Shown: positions 14,192 to 54,938 of the stretch, in pieces
Position numbering within the stretch: the stretch's first letter is position 1
How the letters are laid out: each line of letters starts with the position of its first letter
Source of the DNA: Escherichia phage skuden
Reading direction: 5' to 3' (one strand)
Sequence record: MN850585.1
Length of the DNA: 64,000 nt
The notes under the pieces: model-generated
What the model was told of the DNA's origin: nothing
The model's database searches: none
Seen by the model: the letters and a program-made list of their open reading frames with translations, nothing else
Made by a program: the position numbers and the translations under genes

Positions 14192-14378
14192 CTCTTCGTT
14201 GTAGTTCTGCCTTCAATCCATTTTCAATCTTGTCCAGTTCATGAATTTCATCTGCAATCTCTTTCCTTCGTGATTCAACTCTCTTAAGACGTTCAATCAT
14301 TACCTCATTGGAAAGAGATGAGAGTTCCACTAAACGGTGGTCAATAACTTTAAAATTGTCTTTTACTCTCATCTTCAT
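14178..14378 (-). CDS. hypothetical coiled-coil protein
   Basis: ORF track 66 aa. Confidence 0.4.
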   Translation of the reverse strand: MKMRVKDNFKVIDHRLVELSSLSNEVMIERLKRVESRRKEIADEIHELDKIENGLKAELQRRGANV

Positions 14379-16614: not shown

Positions 16615-16673
16615 TTGCTTTTTATAATTTTTTGCAGTAATGTATGAGGTTAATGATTTTAGAGGGAGTAAAA

Positions 16674-19373
16674 ATGGAAAACGTAGATTTTAAAAACTTA
16701 CATTTGGTTGGTGATACAGAAACTGATGGTTTACTCCTTGAGTTCACTAAAGTTCACGTAATGGCTTTCGCAGACTATAAATCTGACGATGAAGAGCCGC
16801 CTGTATGGGTCTTTACAGATGAGCCTATCCTCGGTCACAAGTATACTAAGTATATTAAGGGTGGCTTACGTGAAGGTATTGAGTTTGCGTTAAAGGCAAA
16901 ACGTCTTTGCATCCATAACGGTCTCGGTTATGACTGGTGGGTTTTCAATCACATTGCACCGGATTTATGGAACTTTGATAATCCAAAATGTAAACCGTGG
17001 AGTAATTTCTTTCAGGATTCTCTTATCCAGTCTCGTGTTCAGTGGATGGATAGACCAACTCCAAAGGGCTATAAAGGTGCTCATGGTTTGGCTGCATGGG
17101 GTGCTCGTGTTGGTGTTCGTAAGCCAGAGATTGAGCATTGGGGTGTGTGGAATGCAGAAATCTTCACTCGTGTTGTAGAAGATATCCGTATTAACGCCAA
17201 AACTAAACGGGCACTTGATAACGAGTATCTCAAGCTTAAGAAGTGTGGCATAGACACTTATGAAACCTACATGCGAGCTAAAGAGACATCTTTCTGGATG
17301 AGCCAGCAAGCTATCAATGGTTGGAAAGCTGATAAAGAGCTTATGGAGTTCCATGTAAAGGAACTTGACAAGTTGACTAATGAGCTTGCTTCAGAGGTTG
17401 AACCACATCTACCTCCAACTATTAAGACCAAAGGTAAAGTCACTGGAGAAGAGTTTGCAAAAGCTTGGAATGAGTATGTTGAAACATTTGGTCATGCAGA
17501 TGGACTGAAGAGAATTACCAAGTACCCTAAGACAAAGTACCGTCAGCAGGTACGTAATGGTGAGATGCAGACATATGAAATCAAACCATTTGGTAAGCCA
17601 ACTACAAAGATTTTTAACATTGAAAAGAGAAATTGCTATACACCAACCAACTCTGTAACTGGTGAAGAGTACAAGGAAGGTTTTGTAGCAATGAAGGATG
17701 CTCGTGCAATTTGCAATGAGTTGAATGCAAAGATTGGTAAGAAGTGCAAAGACTGGAAGCCAGTAAAAACAGTTAAAACTGTGAAGTACTATAACAGTCA
17801 TGTTGTTAACCACTTTGAGCTTGAGTCAAGTCGCTACACAGGTTTGATTGATGCACCATATACACCAATTGAGTTCGAAGTTTCTCGTATGACTCAGGTA
17901 GCAGTTGTTAAAGACTACTTGAAATCAGTTGGTTGGGTTCCAGATGACTGGAACTACAAGAAAGACTCAGATGGTCGTCCTGTTAAGGTTTGTCGTTTCA
18001 AAGACAACAAAAAGATGATTACAAAGCATCCTAAGTGGCAGGAAATGGTTGAGCGGTGTGGTTTGAGTTATGTTGAACATGAAGGTGTACAGTACATCGA
18101 GCATAACTGGTCTGTGAAGAAATACACAGATTTGCTTGAGCCTTGCTTAATCCGTACTTCACCAAAACTTACTGAATCATCTTATGATACGATTGAAGGT
18201 GAGCTTGGACAGAAGATTGCGAAGTACTATACTTTGATGCACCGACGTAGAACTATTGAGAACTCAAAGGATGACGAGAAAGGTTGGCTGAACCAGATTC
18301 GTCCTGATGGTCGCCTTAGTGCTGGTGCAATGGTGTTTGGTACTTCAACTGGACGTATGACACAATATGGTATTGTAAACGTACCATCTGGTGCTGCTGT
18401 ATATGGAGCACCTATGAGGGAGGTGTGGACTTGTGAAGATGGTACAGATATCATCTCCGTAGACCAAAACTCAGCCCAGTTAGTTCTTCTTTGTAACTTT
18501 ATGGGTGATGAAGACTTCACTAAAGCGGTAACTGAGGGTAAAGAGTCAGTAGAGTTCACTAAGCAAGATGATGGTAGATACTACTGTAAGCATCTTGACA
18601 AGTATCTTAACCCAGAAACTGACAAGTATCTGCGTTATGATGCTGAGAATGACCTCTATGAAGTCTACACAGGGACTGATGCGCATACACTGAACAGTAT
18701 TTACTTTGGTCTTAACAAAGAAGAGGATATTATTCTTTGTCGGGAGACGCAGGATGAGGAACTTCTTCACGAGATTACAAAGGGTCGTAAAAAGGCTAAG
18801 AATGGCATCTACGCCCTGTTATTTGGAGCCGGAGACGAGAAGTTTGCAAAAACTATCAAAGCATCATCTACGGAAGAGGGTGCATTAACTAAACAAACTT
18901 ACTTTGTACGTCTACCTAAGATTAAAAAGCTGCTTGATAGACTAGAGGAAGACTTCAAAGCAACTAAGAAAGCACTTGAAGAGGTTTTTGGAAAAACTTC
19001 TGCAATTGCCAAAGGTGGTTATATCAAAGTTGCTGGGGCGTGGTTATGGTGTAAATCTCCACATAAGTTATTGAATTACACACTTATGGGCAGTGAGGCT
19101 CAAGTTCAGAATGAAGGTATTAACTTGGCAAACAGGGAACTCACAGAGCGTAAGCTTACAGTACTAAATGGTAGGAAGCCTGCTATTGGTGCTAGGTGGG
19201 TCTGTAGTTACCACGATGAGGTCTCTTTAGAGGTTCCAACCAAAGATGTACCTGATGTTAAGGAGATTATTGATAGAATGTATGGTCAAGCATCAAAAAA
19301 TCTTGGATTAAAGAGTAAGACGCTTGTTACAGGCACTGGTAAGGTAGGTAAGACATGGTACGCCGTACACTAA
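16674..19373 (+). CDS. DNA polymerase, family A
   Basis: Exo I DTETDGL; motif A-like VDQNSAQLVLL; motif B KKAKNGIYALLFGAG; motif C YHDEVSLEV; start set at ATG 16674 with RBS AGAGGGAG. Confidence 0.9.
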   Translation: MENVDFKNLHLVGDTETDGLLLEFTKVHVMAFADYKSDDEEPPVWVFTDEPILGHKYTKYIKGGLREGIEFALKAKRLCIHNGLGYDWWVFNHIAPDLWNFDNPKCKPWSNFFQDSLIQSRVQWMDRPTPKGYKGAHGLAAWGARVGVRKPEIEHWGVWNAEIFTRVVEDIRINAKTKRALDNEYLKLKKCGIDTYETYMRAKETSFWMSQQAINGWKADKELMEFHVKELDKLTNELASEVEPHLPPTIKTKGKVTGEEFAKAWNEYVETFGHADGLKRITKYPKTKYRQQVRNGEMQTYEIKPFGKPTTKIFNIEKRNCYTPTNSVTGEEYKEGFVAMKDARAICNELNAKIGKKCKDWKPVKTVKTVKYYNSHVVNHFELESSRYTGLIDAPYTPIEFEVSRMTQVAVVKDYLKSVGWVPDDWNYKKDSDGRPVKVCRFKDNKKMITKHPKWQEMVERCGLSYVEHEGVQYIEHNWSVKKYTDLLEPCLIRTSPKLTESSYDTIEGELGQKIAKYYTLMHRRRTIENSKDDEKGWLNQIRPDGRLSAGAMVFGTSTGRMTQYGIVNVPSGAAVYGAPMREVWTCEDGTDIISVDQNSAQLVLLCNFMGDEDFTKAVTEGKESVEFTKQDDGRYYCKHLDKYLNPETDKYLRYDAENDLYEVYTGTDAHTLNSIYFGLNKEEDIILCRETQDEELLHEITKGRKKAKNGIYALLFGAGDEKFAKTIKASSTEEGALTKQTYFVRLPKIKKLLDRLEEDFKATKKALEEVFGKTSAIAKGGYIKVAGAWLWCKSPHKLLNYTLMGSEAQVQNEGINLANRELTERKLTVLNGRKPAIGARWVCSYHDEVSLEVPTKDVPDVKEIIDRMYGQASKNLGLKSKTLVTGTGKVGKTWYAVH

Positions 19374-19858
19374 CACTTCAAGATTACAAGGATAATTTTA
19401 TTTACGACCCCGACAAAGGGGTCTTCTACAACAAGTATGACAGGAATAGACAAGCTAAAGCTGGGCAGATTGCAGGAGGTGCTGATGCTTACGGTTACAA
19501 AGTACTTAAATTCAAAGATGTCGTAATAAAAATTCATCACCTCGTTTGGTGGTTCGAACATGGTTACAAACCCACTAAGATGATAGACCACATTGATGGT
19601 AACAGGAGTAATAATCACATTTCTAATCTTAGGGAGACTGATAAATACGGAAATGCTCAAAATAGAGTAAAGCAGACAACTAACAAATCAGGTTACAAGG
19701 GTGTACATTACTTTAAAGACTGCAATAAGTGGAGGGCAGCTATAACATGCAGAGGTAAAAGGACATCACTTGGTTTATTTGACACACCTGAAGAAGCCCA
19801 TAAAGCTTACTGTGAAGCTGCTATTAAACTCCACGGAGAGTTTGCAAAACTGAGTTGA
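19355..19858 (+). CDS. HNH endonuclease with AP2-like DNA-binding domain
   Basis: HLVWWFEHGY...HIDGNRSNNHISNL HNH motif; GYKGVHYF...WRAAI AP2-like segment; overlaps polymerase 3' end by 19 nt. Confidence 0.7.
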   Translation: MVRRTLTLQDYKDNFIYDPDKGVFYNKYDRNRQAKAGQIAGGADAYGYKVLKFKDVVIKIHHLVWWFEHGYKPTKMIDHIDGNRSNNHISNLRETDKYGNAQNRVKQTTNKSGYKGVHYFKDCNKWRAAITCRGKRTSLGLFDTPEEAHKAYCEAAIKLHGEFAKLS

Positions 19859-19909: not shown

Positions 19910-20119
19910 ATGAGCCACCGTGGAAGAACCCATGCAGCGATGATGAAAGGTGCTTCAAAGGAAACTATCAAGAACCGTAAGCAGAAGTTGTTTGAGAGAA
20001 TGAACAGGTTAATTGACAATTCATCTCTTTCAGGTTCTGAGAAGGTTTTCTTGAAAGATAATCTAAAAAGCATTGCACAAGAACTTATTGACATTGAGTA
20101 TTGGAGACATCAAAAATGA
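19910..20119 (+). CDS. hypothetical protein
   Basis: ORF track 69 aa. Confidence 0.4.
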   Translation: MSHRGRTHAAMMKGASKETIKNRKQKLFERMNRLIDNSSLSGSEKVFLKDNLKSIAQELIDIEYWRHQK

Positions 20120-20328
20120 CACTTGCAGACGTTATTCAGCAACTTCACGACAATTGCTATACTCCAGAGTTGATTCAGGAGATGTCCATTGTAGTGATGC
20201 CTAGTAAGTTCGTAAAAGGTTTTAATAGTGACTCTTTAAGGACTGCACACATCCTTATTGTTGACGGTAAGATTGCAAGAGACCGCACAGGAGTCCTTAA
20301 GGGCGAACGTATTAGTATTGACATCTGA
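20116..20328 (+). CDS. hypothetical protein (start taken at MTLADV)
   Basis: ORF track frame, ATG at 20116. Confidence 0.4.
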   Translation: MTLADVIQQLHDNCYTPELIQEMSIVVMPSKFVKGFNSDSLRTAHILIVDGKIARDRTGVLKGERISIDI

Positions 20329-20333
20329 GTATT

Positions 20334-20342
20334 GGGGGGGGG
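20334..20342 (+). repeat. G9 homopolymer tract 9 nt upstream of a start codon
   Basis: attGGGGGGGGGacaccaaaATG. Confidence 0.9.
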
Positions 20343-20350
20343 ACACCAAA

Positions 20351-20506
20351 ATGAAACGCAAAGTAAAATTATTTAGTTTGTATGGAAGAGTCGGTAAAGG
20401 TTTTGACTGGCAACTGCTACGTTCAGATGTTAAAAGCAACGAGTTAGCACAGCTTATTATAAACTATCGACGAACATACAGAGAAGTAGAACATCGTGAA
20501 CAGTAA
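20351..20506 (+). CDS. hypothetical small basic protein
   Basis: ATG at 20351 in frame with ORF 20258..20506; MKRKVKLFSLYGRVGKG. Confidence 0.4.
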   Translation: MKRKVKLFSLYGRVGKGFDWQLLRSDVKSNELAQLIINYRRTYREVEHREQ

Positions 20507-20519
20507 TAGGAGAAGTATT

Positions 20520-20756
20520 ATGTGGAAAGCAGTAATTGCGCTTGGTGTTATTTTTCTATCTGGCTGCAACCCTTCTTATGAAGATAAAAATGCTTCTTAC
20601 AGCCTCCCACCAGAGATGCAAGATTGCAGAGTATACAAGTTACATGGTGATGCTATAAGTAGGGATATTGTTGTTGTCAGATGTCCAAACTCTCAAACAA
20701 CAACATCTTATAGCTATGGCAAAAATGGTCAATCACATACCACGGTTATTGAGTGA
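20520..20756 (+). CDS. putative lipoprotein
   Basis: Signal peptide plus lipobox MWKAVIALGVIFLSGC; RBS TAGGAGAAG upstream of ATG 20520. Confidence 0.55.
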   Translation: MWKAVIALGVIFLSGCNPSYEDKNASYSLPPEMQDCRVYKLHGDAISRDIVVVRCPNSQTTTSYSYGKNGQSHTTVIE

Positions 20757-20766
20757 GGTTTTCACG

Positions 20767-20973
20767 ATGGAAGTATTAGTAAACTATACCTATCGTTATG
20801 ATGTTGTTCACTCCACTACAACCGTAGCTCAACGTAATCCAATCGTCCCACGAGAAGGCGAGTTGGTTCGCATTGATGGTTGGACTTACACTGTGGAAAG
20901 CATCATTCATAAGTTTGATGTTGCTGGCGATGTTCAAGTTATCGACGTAGAGATTGGTGGTAAGAGAAAATGA
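20767..20973 (+). CDS. hypothetical protein
   Basis: Internal ATG (MEVLVNYTYRY) in frame of ORF 20668..20973 with RBS GAGG upstream. Confidence 0.4.
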   Translation: MEVLVNYTYRYDVVHSTTTVAQRNPIVPREGELVRIDGWTYTVESIIHKFDVAGDVQVIDVEIGGKRK

Positions 20974-21161
20974 ACAAAGAAGACAAGCACAAAAATGCTG
21001 TACGAACTCCTGATGGGAAGATTCAATCATTCACCCTGACAGTTGGTGGAAAGCCATTCCGTTGCCACTGCGGAGCAAATTGTTTTCATAAACCGGATAA
21101 AAATGACTTAGAGCTTTACGCATGTAATGCTTGCAATACTTGGTATCACTCAGAGGAATAA
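20970..21161 (+). CDS. small zinc-ribbon protein
   Basis: CHCGANCFH...CNACN Cys/His cluster, 63 aa. Confidence 0.4.
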   Translation: MNKEDKHKNAVRTPDGKIQSFTLTVGGKPFRCHCGANCFHKPDKNDLELYACNACNTWYHSEE

Positions 21162-21162
21162 A

Positions 21163-22263
21163 ATGACAATTCTGTACAAACAAAATAAAGATGGTTCCTT
21201 CAACGTCTGGTCATGCGTTGCTGTAGGTGACAAAGTTATTACAACCTACGGTAAAGAAAATGGCAAGATGATGTTTGAAGAGTATACAGCAGAACCTAAA
21301 AACATCGGTAAAAAGAATGAGCGTAACGCTGAACAGCAAGCTCTCTTTGAAGTCGCTGCTAAGTATAAAAAGCAAGTTGACCGCAAGGGTTACGCTTACA
21401 CAAAAGAGTCTGCACAGAATACTGAGAAGGTAGGTGTACAGCTTGCTCATGATGCTGCAAAGGTTAGTCATGCAAAGTATCTGAAGTTCCCTGCTGATGC
21501 TCAACCAAAACTTGATGGTGTACGTTGTAGAATTTCAAGAGATGATGATTCAGTTAGTTTCACGGCTTATTCTCGTGAGAATACTGTTTACAACGTTCCA
21601 GCAGAACTAATCCCAGATTTGCTTTTGTTGCTTAAATTGCACCCACAAGTCGAAGATTTTGATGGTGAGATTTATGCTCACGGTTGGGACTTAGAAGATA
21701 TTGTCTCTATGATTAAGAATGCTGACAATCCAGACCGTCACCTTCTTAAATTCTACTGGTATGATATCTGTGACAATTCAAAATCTTGGCCTGAGCGTCG
21801 TGAAGTTATTGATAACTCACCCATTGTTGAGATTGGGGATACCTGTAGAGTGGTTCCTGTACAGACTATCCGTGTAAATTCTTGGGAAGAGTTTGATGAA
21901 GCTCATGATAAGTGGGTTGAAGCTAAGTTTGAAGGTGCAATGTACCGTTCAATCTCTGAAGACTCCTTCTATGAGTGTTGTCACCGTTCATACTTCTTGA
22001 TTAAGCACAAGAAGATGCACACTGAAGAGTTTAAAGTGACTGGTGTAAAGACTGATAAACGTGGTCATGGCAAGTTCGTTGTAGAGACTCTTCCTAACGT
22101 CTTTGTAGATGTCTCATGGAAGACTACTCATGAGAAGAAACAGTATCTTGCTGAGCATCCTGAAGAGTTTATCGGGAAGCCTTTAACGGTACAGTTCCAG
22201 AAGATGACTCGTAAGGGTTCTTTACAGTTCCCTGTCGGGCTAGTTATTAGGGATTATGAGTAA
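21163..22263 (+). CDS. ATP-dependent DNA ligase
   Basis: Adenylation motif I KLDG (QPKLDGVRC); about 366 aa as in T7-type ligases; start ATG 21163 with RBS GAGGAA. Confidence 0.8.
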   Translation: MTILYKQNKDGSFNVWSCVAVGDKVITTYGKENGKMMFEEYTAEPKNIGKKNERNAEQQALFEVAAKYKKQVDRKGYAYTKESAQNTEKVGVQLAHDAAKVSHAKYLKFPADAQPKLDGVRCRISRDDDSVSFTAYSRENTVYNVPAELIPDLLLLLKLHPQVEDFDGEIYAHGWDLEDIVSMIKNADNPDRHLLKFYWYDICDNSKSWPERREVIDNSPIVEIGDTCRVVPVQTIRVNSWEEFDEAHDKWVEAKFEGAMYRSISEDSFYECCHRSYFLIKHKKMHTEEFKVTGVKTDKRGHGKFVVETLPNVFVDVSWKTTHEKKQYLAEHPEEFIGKPLTVQFQKMTRKGSLQFPVGLVIRDYE

Positions 22264-22420
22264 ACTATGTTAAGTACAATCATTCTGTTTGCATTAGTTG
22301 TCTTTGTGTTGTCTTACATCACAAGTAAACTTTTGAACACATCCTTTGCAATGGGTGTTTTGTTCACAATCTTTTGTTTTGTAACACATATAGCTGTCAG
22401 GACTTTTATATAAAAAGTTG

Positions 22421-22448
22421 TTGACATAGAAAATTTGGTGAGTATACT
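22421..22448 (+). promoter_or_regulatory. sigma70-like promoter
   Basis: TTGACA - 16 nt - TATACT. Confidence 0.5.
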
Positions 22449-22623
22449 GAGCAGCATAAACCAACGGGTACTCACCAGCATCACTTAAGAGTCTTCTAAG
22501 AGGGTTTTTAAGTCATGTATTGCACGGTAAGGTGATGTGAAGTCTGGTCTGGCATGGTGTAGTCTGGTATGGAAGGATGGCAGTAGCCTTATAAAAAATC
22601 TGCCAAATAAGCTATAAAATCTG

Positions 22624-22652
22624 TTGACAAGTCAGGTGTTATAGCTTATTTT
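22624..22652 (+). promoter_or_regulatory. sigma70-like promoter
   Basis: TTGACA - 17 nt - TATTTT, upstream of ORF 22697. Confidence 0.45.
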
Positions 22653-22696
22653 TATACTCAATGTAATACAAAATTTAATATAGCTTTGAGGTCATT

Positions 22697-23080
22697 ATGA
22701 AAAAGATTTTATTAGCTGCTGCAATGGTTATGGCAATGAATTTACCAGTCAATGCAACAGAACTTCCAAATGTGGACTTATCAGGTGTTCCAGAAGATAC
22801 TTGCCAGATTGTAAAAGGTGTTGCTCTAGCTAATGGTGAGCTACTTAAACCAATCTCTGAAGAATCTTTGACAGAGATGACTGATAAGGTGACTGACTAC
22901 CAGTATCGTGTTCTTGCAGAGTATTTCCTGCAATCTGCAAATATTAAAGAGAAGCACCATGATGATATTGATGTACAGGCGATGCTCAACCACCGTATCC
23001 AGTTTAAAGAAGATTTGATGCAAAAAGCCATGTATGGTGTTGAGTATTTCTTAGAAAACAGAAGCTGCACAGGTATTTGA
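22697..23080 (+). CDS. secreted/periplasmic protein of unknown function
   Basis: N-terminal signal peptide MKKILLAAAMVMAMNLPVNA-TE. Confidence 0.5.
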   Translation: MKKILLAAAMVMAMNLPVNATELPNVDLSGVPEDTCQIVKGVALANGELLKPISEESLTEMTDKVTDYQYRVLAEYFLQSANIKEKHHDDIDVQAMLNHRIQFKEDLMQKAMYGVEYFLENRSCTGI

Positions 23081-26188: not shown

Positions 26189-26222
26189 AAGGCTCCCGTA
26201 AAAAGGAGCCTTAAAATTTTAT
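26189..26222. terminator. bidirectional hairpin terminator between convergent genes
   Basis: aaaaaaGGCTCCcgtaaaaaGGAGCCttaaaattttatttt. Confidence 0.6.
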
Positions 26223-26590
26223 TTTTCAGTATTCTTTGTGTTCTTTTCAGTAATAGCTTGGAGGGCTGATACTGATTGAGCCAGATTGTTAACACTATCA
26301 GAGAATTTATCAAGAGTCTTAGTAAGTTTTGCGTTCTCTCCCTTAACATTCTCTAACTGAACTTTCTGGTTCTCCATCCCTAGCTGAATCAGTCTCATGT
26401 CAGACTGTAAATCACGAATAGCTGAATAGTTACTTTTGGAATAATTATCTAGCTGCTGTAACTTTGTTGTGACAGACACTTCTTGCTTACCACTTGAAAC
26501 TTGCATGGTGGTATACATCCCAATAACACTAAAAATACCAACAACAATTGCACCAATATTGTTTTTAAAAGCTTCCTCTAGCCACTTCAT
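26219..26590 (-). CDS. membrane-anchored coiled-coil protein (spanin-like candidate)
   Basis: N-terminal TM segment IGAIVVGIFSVIGMYTT then coiled coil; 123 aa. Confidence 0.35.
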   Translation of the reverse strand: MKWLEEAFKNNIGAIVVGIFSVIGMYTTMQVSSGKQEVSVTTKLQQLDNYSKSNYSAIRDLQSDMRLIQLGMENQKVQLENVKGENAKLTKTLDKFSDSVNNLAQSVSALQAITEKNTKNTEK

Positions 26591-26785
26591 TTATTTCTCC
26601 CCCTTAAAAGCTTTTTCTAAGTTGTCTACGAACTCATCATCGATAGGCGTGTCTGTTTTACTCGCAAGATATCTTGCAAGCCTAAAGAACACTTTCTCAA
26701 TCATGTATTCACTCAGAAGGGATAAAATGAGTTTCCAGAAGAAGCTACCTAGATTTTTTAGAAGAATTGCTAGGATTGTAGGCAT
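26591..26785 (-). CDS. small membrane protein (holin candidate)
   Basis: 64 aa, hydrophobic N-terminus, charged C-terminus. Confidence 0.3.
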   Translation of the reverse strand: MPTILAILLKNLGSFFWKLILSLLSEYMIEKVFFRLARYLASKTDTPIDDEFVDNLEKAFKGEK

Positions 26786-54854: not shown

Positions 54855-54861
54855 ATTAATT

Positions 54862-54938
54862 TGGTCTCTGTTGGAGGACTTGAACCTCCGGCCTTACCGC
54901 CCCAAACGGAACGCTCTACCAAGCTGAGCTAAACAGAG
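54862..54938 (-). tRNA. tRNA-Pro (anticodon UGG)
   Basis: Acceptor CTCTGTT/AACAGAG, D-arm GCTC/GAGC, anticodon loop TTTGGGG, T-arm GGAGGTTCAAGTCCTCC. Confidence 0.7.

Follow-up and report, generated by a model that had tools for sequence, protein, structure and literature searches.

Does the interval between positions 20520 and 23080 of Escherichia phage skuden (sequence record MN850585.1) encode superinfection-exclusion proteins, and what do the strong promoter-like sites inside it serve? We addressed these questions in a window of 64,000 nucleotides (nt), about 64 of the roughly 86 kb of the phage genome. The original prediction had read the interval as an early-region lipoprotein and a secreted protein driven by strong promoters, with phage T5 Llp as the analogy. 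Our analysis points to another composition: the interval probably holds three unrelated things, namely, a lipoprotein gene (20520-20756), a cut-down cassette of the RNA-guided DNA-binding system VIPR in the gap at 22414-22696, and a gene for a secreted protein (22697-23080), a grading that applies to the whole explanation, including the mechanism proposed below. The part of the interval most plausibly involved in phage-phage conflict is the RNA gene between the two open reading frames (ORFs). Judged by its sequence, the window comes from a Felixounavirus (Felix O1-like myophage, Ounavirinae). The 3.2-kb stretch around the interval matches 259 phage records at 80 to 96% identity, nearly all of them from Felix O1-like myoviruses of Salmonella, Escherichia, Shigella, and Citrobacter, and positions 14355 to 79902 of Felix O1 are collinear with the window.

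VIPR is known only from a mid-2026 preprint, which describes a phage-borne system that binds DNA under RNA guidance and has been proposed to be older than CRISPR (10.64898/2026.04.26.720920). It consists of a RAMP-like protein of ∼20 kDa (Vipr), an accessory protein (Vap), and guide RNAs (vrRNAs) of 9 to 16 YNNGG repeats (GGY conserved, NN hypervariable) followed by a conserved, structured 3' tail with a published pseudoknot. Pairing with the double-stranded DNA target is through the NN dinucleotides, one target base being skipped per unit, and in natural targets the skipped bases fall on wobble positions. The type example is that of phage SUSP1 (Ounavirinae), with one vrRNA upstream and three downstream of vipr and vap; these ∼100-nt RNAs were seen by small-RNA sequencing, copurify with Vipr, and guide DNA binding. 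According to the same text, 18 of the 20 assigned guides of the SUSP1 clade aim at a satellite phage, and both vrRNAs aimed at other VIPR loci (P. fulva clade) and vrRNAs borne by SUSP1 satellites are on record (10.64898/2026.04.26.720920).

We found that the 283 nt between the first promoter-like site (P1) and ORF 22697 are noncoding and have the anatomy of a vrRNA gene on the plus strand. Its core is a tract of 12 period-5 units (GY NN G) at 22512-22571, recognized by a pentamer count and by the YNNGG definition, with the NN code ca at ac aa ga ga ct ct at gt ct at. In-phase GT pentamers amount to 8 of 10 at this array and to at most 5 elsewhere in the 64 kb, on either strand (6 or more are found nowhere else). 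The array is preceded by a 5' handle stem-loop at 22482-22511 (CACTTAAGAGTCTTCTAAGAGGGTTTTTAA), for which folding predicts a 14-bp stem relying on G-U pairs and which is nearly invariant when aligned with the handles of SUSP1 vrRNA1 and vrRNA4 and of vrRNA4 from phage ASO1B. It is followed by a 3' tail at 22572-22604 (GAAGGATGGCAGTAGCCTTATAAAAAATCTGCC) with a GGCAG/CTGCC hairpin, identical to the tails of SUSP1 vrRNA4 and ASO1B vrRNA4. Immediately beyond, folding and reading of the sequence reveal an AT-rich, terminator-like hairpin (ATAAGCTATAA / TTATAGCTTAT) and a T-run (22607-22653), which enclose the second promoter-like site (P2); the equivalent region of ASO1B is annotated as a promoter/terminator region, and we infer that the hairpin and T-run are the likely end of the vrRNA unit. 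In the alignment with the SUSP1 and ASO1B vrRNAs, the G/Y columns are conserved and the NN columns are variable.

Related phages carry one to five such arrays each, always in the gap between the ligase gene and the homologue of Felix O1 ORF87 (the secreted-protein gene of the interval) and nowhere else in the sequence examined, which includes the whole Felix O1 genome. Each array has the conserved stem-loop motif before it and the conserved tail and hairpin after it, and where a phage has several arrays, the middle of the locus is occupied by two further genes (195 and 146 codons). The SUSP1 locus runs ligase, P1, vrRNA1, vipr, vap, vrRNA2 to vrRNA4, P2, ORF87 homologue (vipr at L134:2152-2739 and the ORF87 homologue at L134:3714-4094 in our SUSP1 sequence). 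The window shares with this type II system (vipr, vap1, vrRNA1 to vrRNA4) the slot, identical P1 and P2, a 12-unit GGY/NN tract, and an identical handle and tail of the vrRNA4 type. Because the slot, promoters, handle, and tail are shared while the NN columns differ, we identify the array, by homology, as the vrRNA gene of a VIPR system. The window differs from SUSP1 in having a single guide and neither vipr nor vap. Its layout looks like the product of a deletion between two handle copies, which would have fused P1 and the leader of vrRNA1 to a vrRNA4-type body.

Period-5 arrays are not confined to this group. A scan of IMG/VR for 11 in-phase GT pentamers matched at least 120 viral contigs, which include, besides microsatellites, many loci (L014 to L133) with multicopy, diverse period-5 arrays built on the fixed triplets GTC, GTT, GTG, xGT+T, and xGT+A. 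Examples are GTCNN (L033, L085, L104), GTTNN (L015, L035, L102), GTNNT (L029, L036, L043), and GTNNG (L038, L039, L049, L056, L122). Such arrays with other triplets may be vrRNAs of other VIPR types (the preprint text mentions "a related consensus") or something else.

We found neither vipr nor vap in the window: tblastn searches of the 64 kb with the Vipr and Vap proteins of SUSP1 and phage heid returned nothing below an E value of 0.13. The complete Felix O1 genome likewise yielded no vipr or vap by tblastn, and it contains one array with the same guide. We found vipr at 90% identity or more in ∼118 Ounavirinae records compared with 258 records with an ORF87 homologue, so roughly half of these phages are without it. 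In the records sampled from Felixounavirus, Mooglevirus, and Suspvirus, Vipr is 96 to 100% identical, compared with ∼33% for the adjacent ORF87 homologue; a recent horizontal spread of the cassette, P1 and P2 included, is evident from these sequence comparisons.

We then looked for the target of the window guide, using its 12 units as a query of NN plus one wildcard, repeated according to the published one-base-skip rule, with the 80% NN match of natural targets as the threshold. Exact 10-unit scans of IMG/VR and of GTDB genomes gave no match. Two 8-unit scans gave mostly chance matches; when these were rescored at 12 units, three contigs of Felix size came out on top at 22/24. The matched sequence translates to QITKEELLMVLE, a part of Vipr itself. 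The guide matches codons 156 to 167 of vipr at 22/24 positions (92%) in heid and ASO1B and at 21/24 (88%) in SUSP1 and Moogle, and the skipped base lies at codon position 3 throughout, so that the target obeys the one-base-skip rule with wobble skips, as in SUSP1. The second-best scores in the vipr loci are 15 to 17, and none of 2,000 and none of 1,000 unit-order shuffles reached 22. Neither the window nor Felix O1 contains a self-target (best scores, 18 and 17, respectively). The window guide is thus aimed at vipr itself, unlike the satellite-aimed guides assigned in the SUSP1 clade.

At this target site, the Leu codons of vipr read CTC TTG in SUSP1 and Moogle and CTT CTG/CTA in heid and ASO1B (L134:2617-2651, L012:11038-11072, L002:4592-4626). 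The synonymous CTG-to-TTG switch alters a nonwobble base, so that 21 instead of 22 positions match; judging from these sequences, it could be an escape-type change or a coincidence.

The guide is shared beyond the window. The tract is present at 90% identity or more in ∼45 Salmonella and Escherichia phage records, in which it is never annotated, and the guides of phages Sl26 and Felix O1 match the same vipr site at 20 to 21 of 24 positions. Among the 30 vipr matches and 30 guide matches listed, no record is common to both. We also compared six further phages with compact gaps lacking vipr and vap. One of them, Salmonella phage SP3_SHan-2021 (SP3; MW296865), has a compact, vipr-less gap with a lone vrRNA that carries a different guide (L278, ∼400-454). 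This guide matches vipr codons 1 to 11, in antisense, at 20/22 positions with wobble skips, a score reached by 1 of 1,000 shuffles. At least two independent guides thus appear, from these matches, to have arrived at vipr by convergence, at codons 156 to 167 in the window/Felix O1 type and at the start-codon region in the SP3 type. By comparison, a set of 19 other guides, taken from JohannRWettstein, ASO1B, heid, Moogle, and SUSP1 (15 from four vipr-carrying phages and 4 from near-threshold arrays of JohannRWettstein, Moogle, and heid), had no match of 80% or more over at least nine units on the phage sequences examined, which fits the satellite-aimed guides reported in the available preprint text. 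Within 5,426 complete Escherichia coli genomes we found no vipr, which rules out a resident prophage or satellite as the source of the target; the only known carriers are sibling lytic phages.

We therefore propose, tentatively and on the strength of sequence comparison, that vipr-less phages of the Felix O1 type may keep a promoter-driven, guide-only anti-VIPR RNA that turns the Vipr of a relative on the vipr operon. The vrRNA would be transcribed from P1 and idle in single infections, in which it cannot act because vipr and vap are absent. Upon coinfection with a VIPR-positive relative, the lone guide would be loaded onto the Vipr of this rival and have it repress the rival's own vipr-vap operon, a guide-only countermeasure; it may also compete for Vipr with the guides that the rival itself makes. 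The available preprint text offers precedents for both halves of this proposal, satellite-borne vrRNAs and guides aimed at other VIPR systems; in the vipr-less lytic phages of the Felix O1 type, both properties would be combined. In its logic, such an anti-VIPR guide can be likened to phage-borne anti-CRISPR RNAs or mini-arrays. The words "orphan" and "Felix" do not occur in the preprint text available (10.64898/2026.04.26.720920), and, as far as that text shows, vipr-less Felix O1-type phages lie outside its Vipr-based survey.

Several points weigh against this proposal. Three to four repeat units depart from the strict GGY (TGT or AGT), a possible sign of decay, and vipr-carrying relatives deviate similarly. 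The transcript ends and processing of the window vrRNA are presumed from those of SUSP1, and the absence of vipr from the ∼22 kb of this phage genome beyond the window is likewise presumed, with Felix O1 as the proxy. The lone guide of phage FSL SP-012 also has its best match in vipr, at a nonsignificant 17/22. Finally, repression of a nonessential gene of a rival brings no obvious selective benefit; the benefit is unclear because the window phage is not a target of any guide from the five VIPR-positive loci examined.

The closest competitor, which we consider rather doubtful, is that the lone vrRNA is a nonfunctional remnant: recombination at the handle would have removed vipr, vap, and the other guides, leaving a guide inherited from an autoregulatory or anti-rival ancestor. 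The junction of P1 and the vrRNA1 leader with a vrRNA4-type body and tail at the handle is what such an event would leave, the RNA has no partner in single infections without Vipr, and several units depart from GGY. However, the same guide is retained at 90% identity or more in the ∼45 phages mentioned above, and the NN code of units 2 to 12 is unchanged in the window, Sl26, and Felix O1 while scaffold positions vary. Chance retention is also hard to square with the unrelated lone guide of SP3, which targets vipr as well, and the four VIPR-positive phages examined showed no vipr-targeting guide.

The two promoter-like sites mark the two ends of a reduced VIPR cassette. Consensus hexamer scoring over 12 kb, compared with shuffled sequence, identified P1 (TTGACA-16-TATACT, 22421-22448, plus strand) as the best sigma-70-type site of the region, with an 11/12 match, and P2 (TTGACA-17-TATTTT, 22624-22652, plus strand) as among the best, with a 10/12 match; the total of promoter-like sites in the region is not above that of the shuffles (33 versus 29.1 expected). 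P1, including its spacer, is identical in Sl26, JohannRWettstein, ASO1B, heid, Moogle, and SUSP1, where it precedes vrRNA1, and the -10 element of Felix O1 differs by one change (TATGCT). P2 is nearly invariant (0 to 2 spacer substitutions) in all relatives examined and always lies directly upstream of the ORF87 homologue. Both sites are thus conserved across Felixounavirus, Mooglevirus, and Suspvirus although the neighboring proteins are far more diverged, a conservation that is confounded by the recent horizontal spread of the whole cassette, which accounts for its near perfection, and by the hairpins that overlap both sites. We infer from this arrangement that P1 is the promoter of the vrRNA and is unlikely to be dedicated to the secreted protein, while P2, inside the vrRNA terminator, probably drives the 127-amino-acid (aa) ORF and downstream genes.

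The original prediction was thus right about the positions and spacing of the two promoter-like sites before 22697-23080. It went astray in taking P1 for the promoter of that ORF, since the vrRNA gene follows P1, and in reading the gap as a promoter region only, which overlooked the noncoding RNA gene. Nor can the strong promoters drive the lipoprotein gene, which stands 1.9 kb upstream of both. The promoter argument for exclusion proteins was therefore largely misassigned: P1 and P2 belong to a horizontally mobile VIPR cassette. A tempting misannotation is thereby corrected, since P1 is not simply a promoter for the protein gene that lies downstream.

An inverted repeat (TTGGTGAGTA / TACTCACCAG, at 22435-22444 and 22470-22479) has its left arm in the P1 spacer and -10 element. 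Because of this overlap, the hairpin (22435-22479) would form only in transcripts reading through from the ligase gene, and, judged by its position, it may be a processing or attenuation element.

We then analyzed the two proteins of the interval. ORF 20520-20756 (plus strand) starts with ATG, has an AGGAG Shine-Dalgarno sequence ∼8 nt upstream, and encodes a 78-aa lipoprotein precursor (N terminus MWKAVIALGVIFLSGC; signal peptide 1-15 with the layout MWK-AVIALGVIF-LSGC and a hydropathy peak of 3.24; predicted lipid-bearing Cys16) with a mature part of 63 aa that contains Cys36 and Cys55. It has the positive n-region, the hydrophobic h-region, and the lipobox of the form [LVI][ASTVI][GAS]C within the first ∼35 residues that mark bacterial-type lipoprotein precursors (signal peptidase II/Lgt substrates), and it is the sole convincing lipobox ORF in the 64 kb, both strands considered. 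The protein matches phrog_902 (E value, 1.6e-16), and a profile search found homologues in more than 120 clusters. In the alignment of 85 homologues, the lipid-bearing Cys, C36, and C55 are invariant (85/85), a VVRCPNSxT motif is nearly so, and a lipobox is recognized in 80. Family members have a mature length of ∼64 residues and, in 71 of the 80, three Cys; the residue following the lipid-bearing Cys (+2) is Asn in the Felix group and Asp in 29 of the 80. According to tblastn, the family occurs in Felixounavirus, Straboviridae of Aeromonas, T5-like Demerecviridae of Vibrio, Klebsiella and Acinetobacter phages, and jumbo phages (for example, 121Q and Serratia BF), always among small early or middle genes and with no conserved neighbor.

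Sequence and structure databases add little to this description. Precomputed hits to PF16225 (PF16225.11), which we take to be DUF4884, are on record for nearly all homologues; our own hmmscan of the window protein and seven homologues against Pfam-A gave none at E values up to 10. Neither the lipoprotein nor the 127-aa protein had an above-threshold match in Pfam, NCBIfam, or PADLOC, the subthreshold matches being to signal peptides only, and the matches of the lipoprotein among Protein Data Bank (PDB) sequences are likewise only to lipoprotein signal peptides. A structure model of the lipoprotein (predicted local distance difference test [pLDDT], 67) had no PDB neighbor in a fold search. For its family, a beta-rich protein with disulfide bonds that is not rich in proline is predicted.

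ORF 22697-23080 (plus strand) encodes a 127-aa secreted, periplasmic protein (phrog_4332; E value, 3e-67) with a signal peptide at residues 1-20 and a mature part of 107 aa, predicted to be helical. Its N terminus (MKKILLAAAMVMAMNLPVNA|TE; layout MKK-ILLAAAMVMAMNLP-VNA|TE) is a classical Sec/signal peptidase I signal, with Lys/Arg in the n-region, an h-region, and an AXA-type cleavage site, and the layout recurs, with an ASA or AYA site, in homologues of 33% identity. The mature protein is acidic (isoelectric point, 4.6) and has two Cys near the chain ends (Cys36 and Cys124); the signal peptide and both Cys are invariant in the 33%-identical homologues. The family is tiny, with four clusters at 90% identity and six matches among 1.8 billion representatives, and its 258 phage records are all from Ounavirinae, the members of the Mooglevirus and Suspvirus type being only ∼33% identical. 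The protein is predicted to be all-helical; an AlphaFold model from a five-sequence alignment is unusable (pLDDT, 40). We found no PDB sequence relative of the protein, T4 Spackle and RI included. Expression of the Felix O1 orthologue, ORF87, reached its RT-PCR maximum at 25 min and was classed as middle (PMC3185647, Table 3 and supplement), so the label "early" holds only in part for this region; the RT-PCR set of that study did not include the lipoprotein orthologue, ORF91.

Both ORFs and their signals are therefore as the original prediction stated, and the lipobox is kept across its family. Since the export signals are conserved in both families, export is well supported on sequence grounds, and the invariant Cys suggest periplasmic disulfides. 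Whether one or both proteins are superinfection-exclusion factors, with the lipoprotein blocking a receptor from the periplasmic side in the manner of Llp or Cor, is another matter, and we consider it unlikely. T5 Llp and phi80 Cor are receptor-blocking exclusion lipoproteins, and small lipoproteins of phages that contain a single disulfide form a known class of exclusion factors. The analogy draws on real likenesses: both genes of the interval are small, accessory, and part of a replication/middle unit, both products carry export signals, ORF87 is transcribed during infection, and the lipoprotein shares with T5 Llp and phi80/T1 Cor ∼60 mature residues, a probable internal disulfide, and expression before lysis. 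However, our searches revealed no similarity in sequence or fold to T5 Llp, Cor, T4 Sp/Imm, or any solved structure, and the lipoprotein gene is not beside receptor-binding genes. Felix O1-like phages are reported to bind lipopolysaccharide (LPS) and not a protein receptor (PMC8594841), which counts against the Llp form in particular, FhuA not being the receptor here.

The distribution of the lipoprotein family also speaks against a receptor plug. It covers Felixounavirus, Straboviridae, Demerecviridae, and jumbo phages of Escherichia, Vibrio, Aeromonas, Serratia, and Acinetobacter, for which a shared specific receptor is implausible. In enterobacteria, Asp at position +2 retains lipoproteins in the inner membrane (the Lol-avoidance rule), and the Asp of 29 of the 80 members argues against an outer-membrane receptor blocker. 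Because of this sorting signal, the LPS receptor, and the host breadth of the family, we favor a conserved target over a receptor plug: Llp-style blocking is unlikely, and the lipoprotein most likely stays anchored in a membrane and acts, as far as its sequence family indicates, on some conserved part of the periplasm or envelope.

For the secreted protein, the nearest likeness is to T4 Spackle (Sp) and RI, which govern superinfection and lysis inhibition and are small, helical proteins secreted into the periplasm. The 127-aa protein is likewise small, signal peptide bearing, predicted to be all-helical, and periplasmic, and it is encoded by a lytic myovirus with rII genes; Mushroom, a relative of the window phage, has been described with a T4-like lysis system. 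It differs in having no detectable homology to them, and its gene has no genetic link to holin or tail-lysozyme genes. An envelope role during infection, possibly in exclusion or lysis control, is a guess.

Very little speaks for the two remaining readings. That the GT array is a DNA-level element (a replication origin in which a strong promoter and a G-rich nontemplate strand form an R-loop ahead of an AT-rich region, a cluster of T7-type primase pentamers, or an array for a TRAP-like ring protein) is highly improbable: the array's GC skew of +0.6, the 22% GC stretch after it, its place among replication genes, and the T7 gp4-like primase-helicase of Felix O1 would suit it, but array number varies from one to five between close relatives, the NN code decodes to a precise in-frame gene target that these models do not predict, and the homologous SUSP1 arrays are reported in the available preprint text as ∼100-nt Vipr-bound guide RNAs (10.64898/2026.04.26.720920). 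On this homology and the decoded target we dropped the R-loop origin, primase sites, and TRAP-like array, as well as G-quadruplexes, a pac site, and a PeSL-like recombination cassette. That the 78-aa lipoprotein is the outer-membrane spanin (o-spanin, the Rz1 equivalent), as its being the sole lipobox ORF in the 64 kb and the scattered lysis genes of Felix O1-like phages might suggest, was rejected as barely credible, since a separate spanin pair lies elsewhere in relatives: JohannRWettstein has an annotated, canonical pair of overlapping inner-membrane spanin (i-spanin) and o-spanin genes beside rIIB, the corresponding place in Felix O1 (beyond the window) carries an Rz-like spanin gene and an ORF that overlaps it, and the Moogle record annotates spanins yet leaves the lipoprotein homologue "hypothetical"; moreover, Asp at +2 is found in many members of the family, for which beta-rich, disulfide-bonded rather than proline-rich proteins are predicted, and the gene's neighbors are small ORFs and the ligase gene, with no i-spanin gene overlapping or adjacent.

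The interval sits within a rightward transcription unit for replication and nucleotide metabolism, in which the DNA polymerase gene (16644-19373) is followed by an HNH endonuclease gene, small ORFs, and the ATP-dependent ligase gene (annotated from ∼21164, to 22263) and later by genes for a transcriptional regulator, dihydrofolate reductase, and thymidylate synthase. Between the ligase gene and P1 lies an ORF for a small membrane protein of 48 aa (22267-22413, plus strand; phrog_22006; E value, 2e-30) with two hydrophobic segments in its hydropathy profile; it is an optional gene, found in Sl26, JohannRWettstein, mio, and FSL SP-012 and missing from the Felix O1 gap.

The HNH homing-endonuclease ORF (19355-19858, plus strand) overlaps the stop of the polymerase gene. 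This spot carries differing endonucleases in relatives, the polymerase of Sl26 being annotated as two pieces around an endonuclease VII gene, and is a mobile-element hotspot. Upstream of the lipoprotein gene, a run of nine G (20334-20342) separates ORF 20116-20328 from a 51-aa ORF that starts at 20351; it could be a ribosome-binding stretch, a slippage-prone tract, or a sequencing artifact. On the minus strand, 26219-26590 encodes a 123-aa protein with an N-terminal transmembrane segment and a coiled coil, which resembles an i-spanin and is called a "putative holin" in Moogle and a "PseT.3-like membrane protein" in the Felix O1 paper. This ORF has no lipoprotein partner embedded or adjacent; directly after it comes an ORF for a 64-aa hydrophobic protein (26591-26785, minus strand). 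A cluster of 23 tRNA genes (50111-54938, minus strand), as expected for Felix O1-like phages, is all that Rfam detected in the window at gathering thresholds.

The lipoprotein family, conserved across very different lytic phages, is a reasonable candidate for work on how phages alter the envelope. As for the guide-only anti-VIPR RNA, if our proposal is true, the lone guide of the classical typing phage Felix O1 and of ∼45 relatives would add countermeasures between sibling phages to the biology of VIPR, and surveys anchored on Vipr would miss such guide-only elements. A natural guide, its natural target, and a known partner protein together make a ready-made test system.

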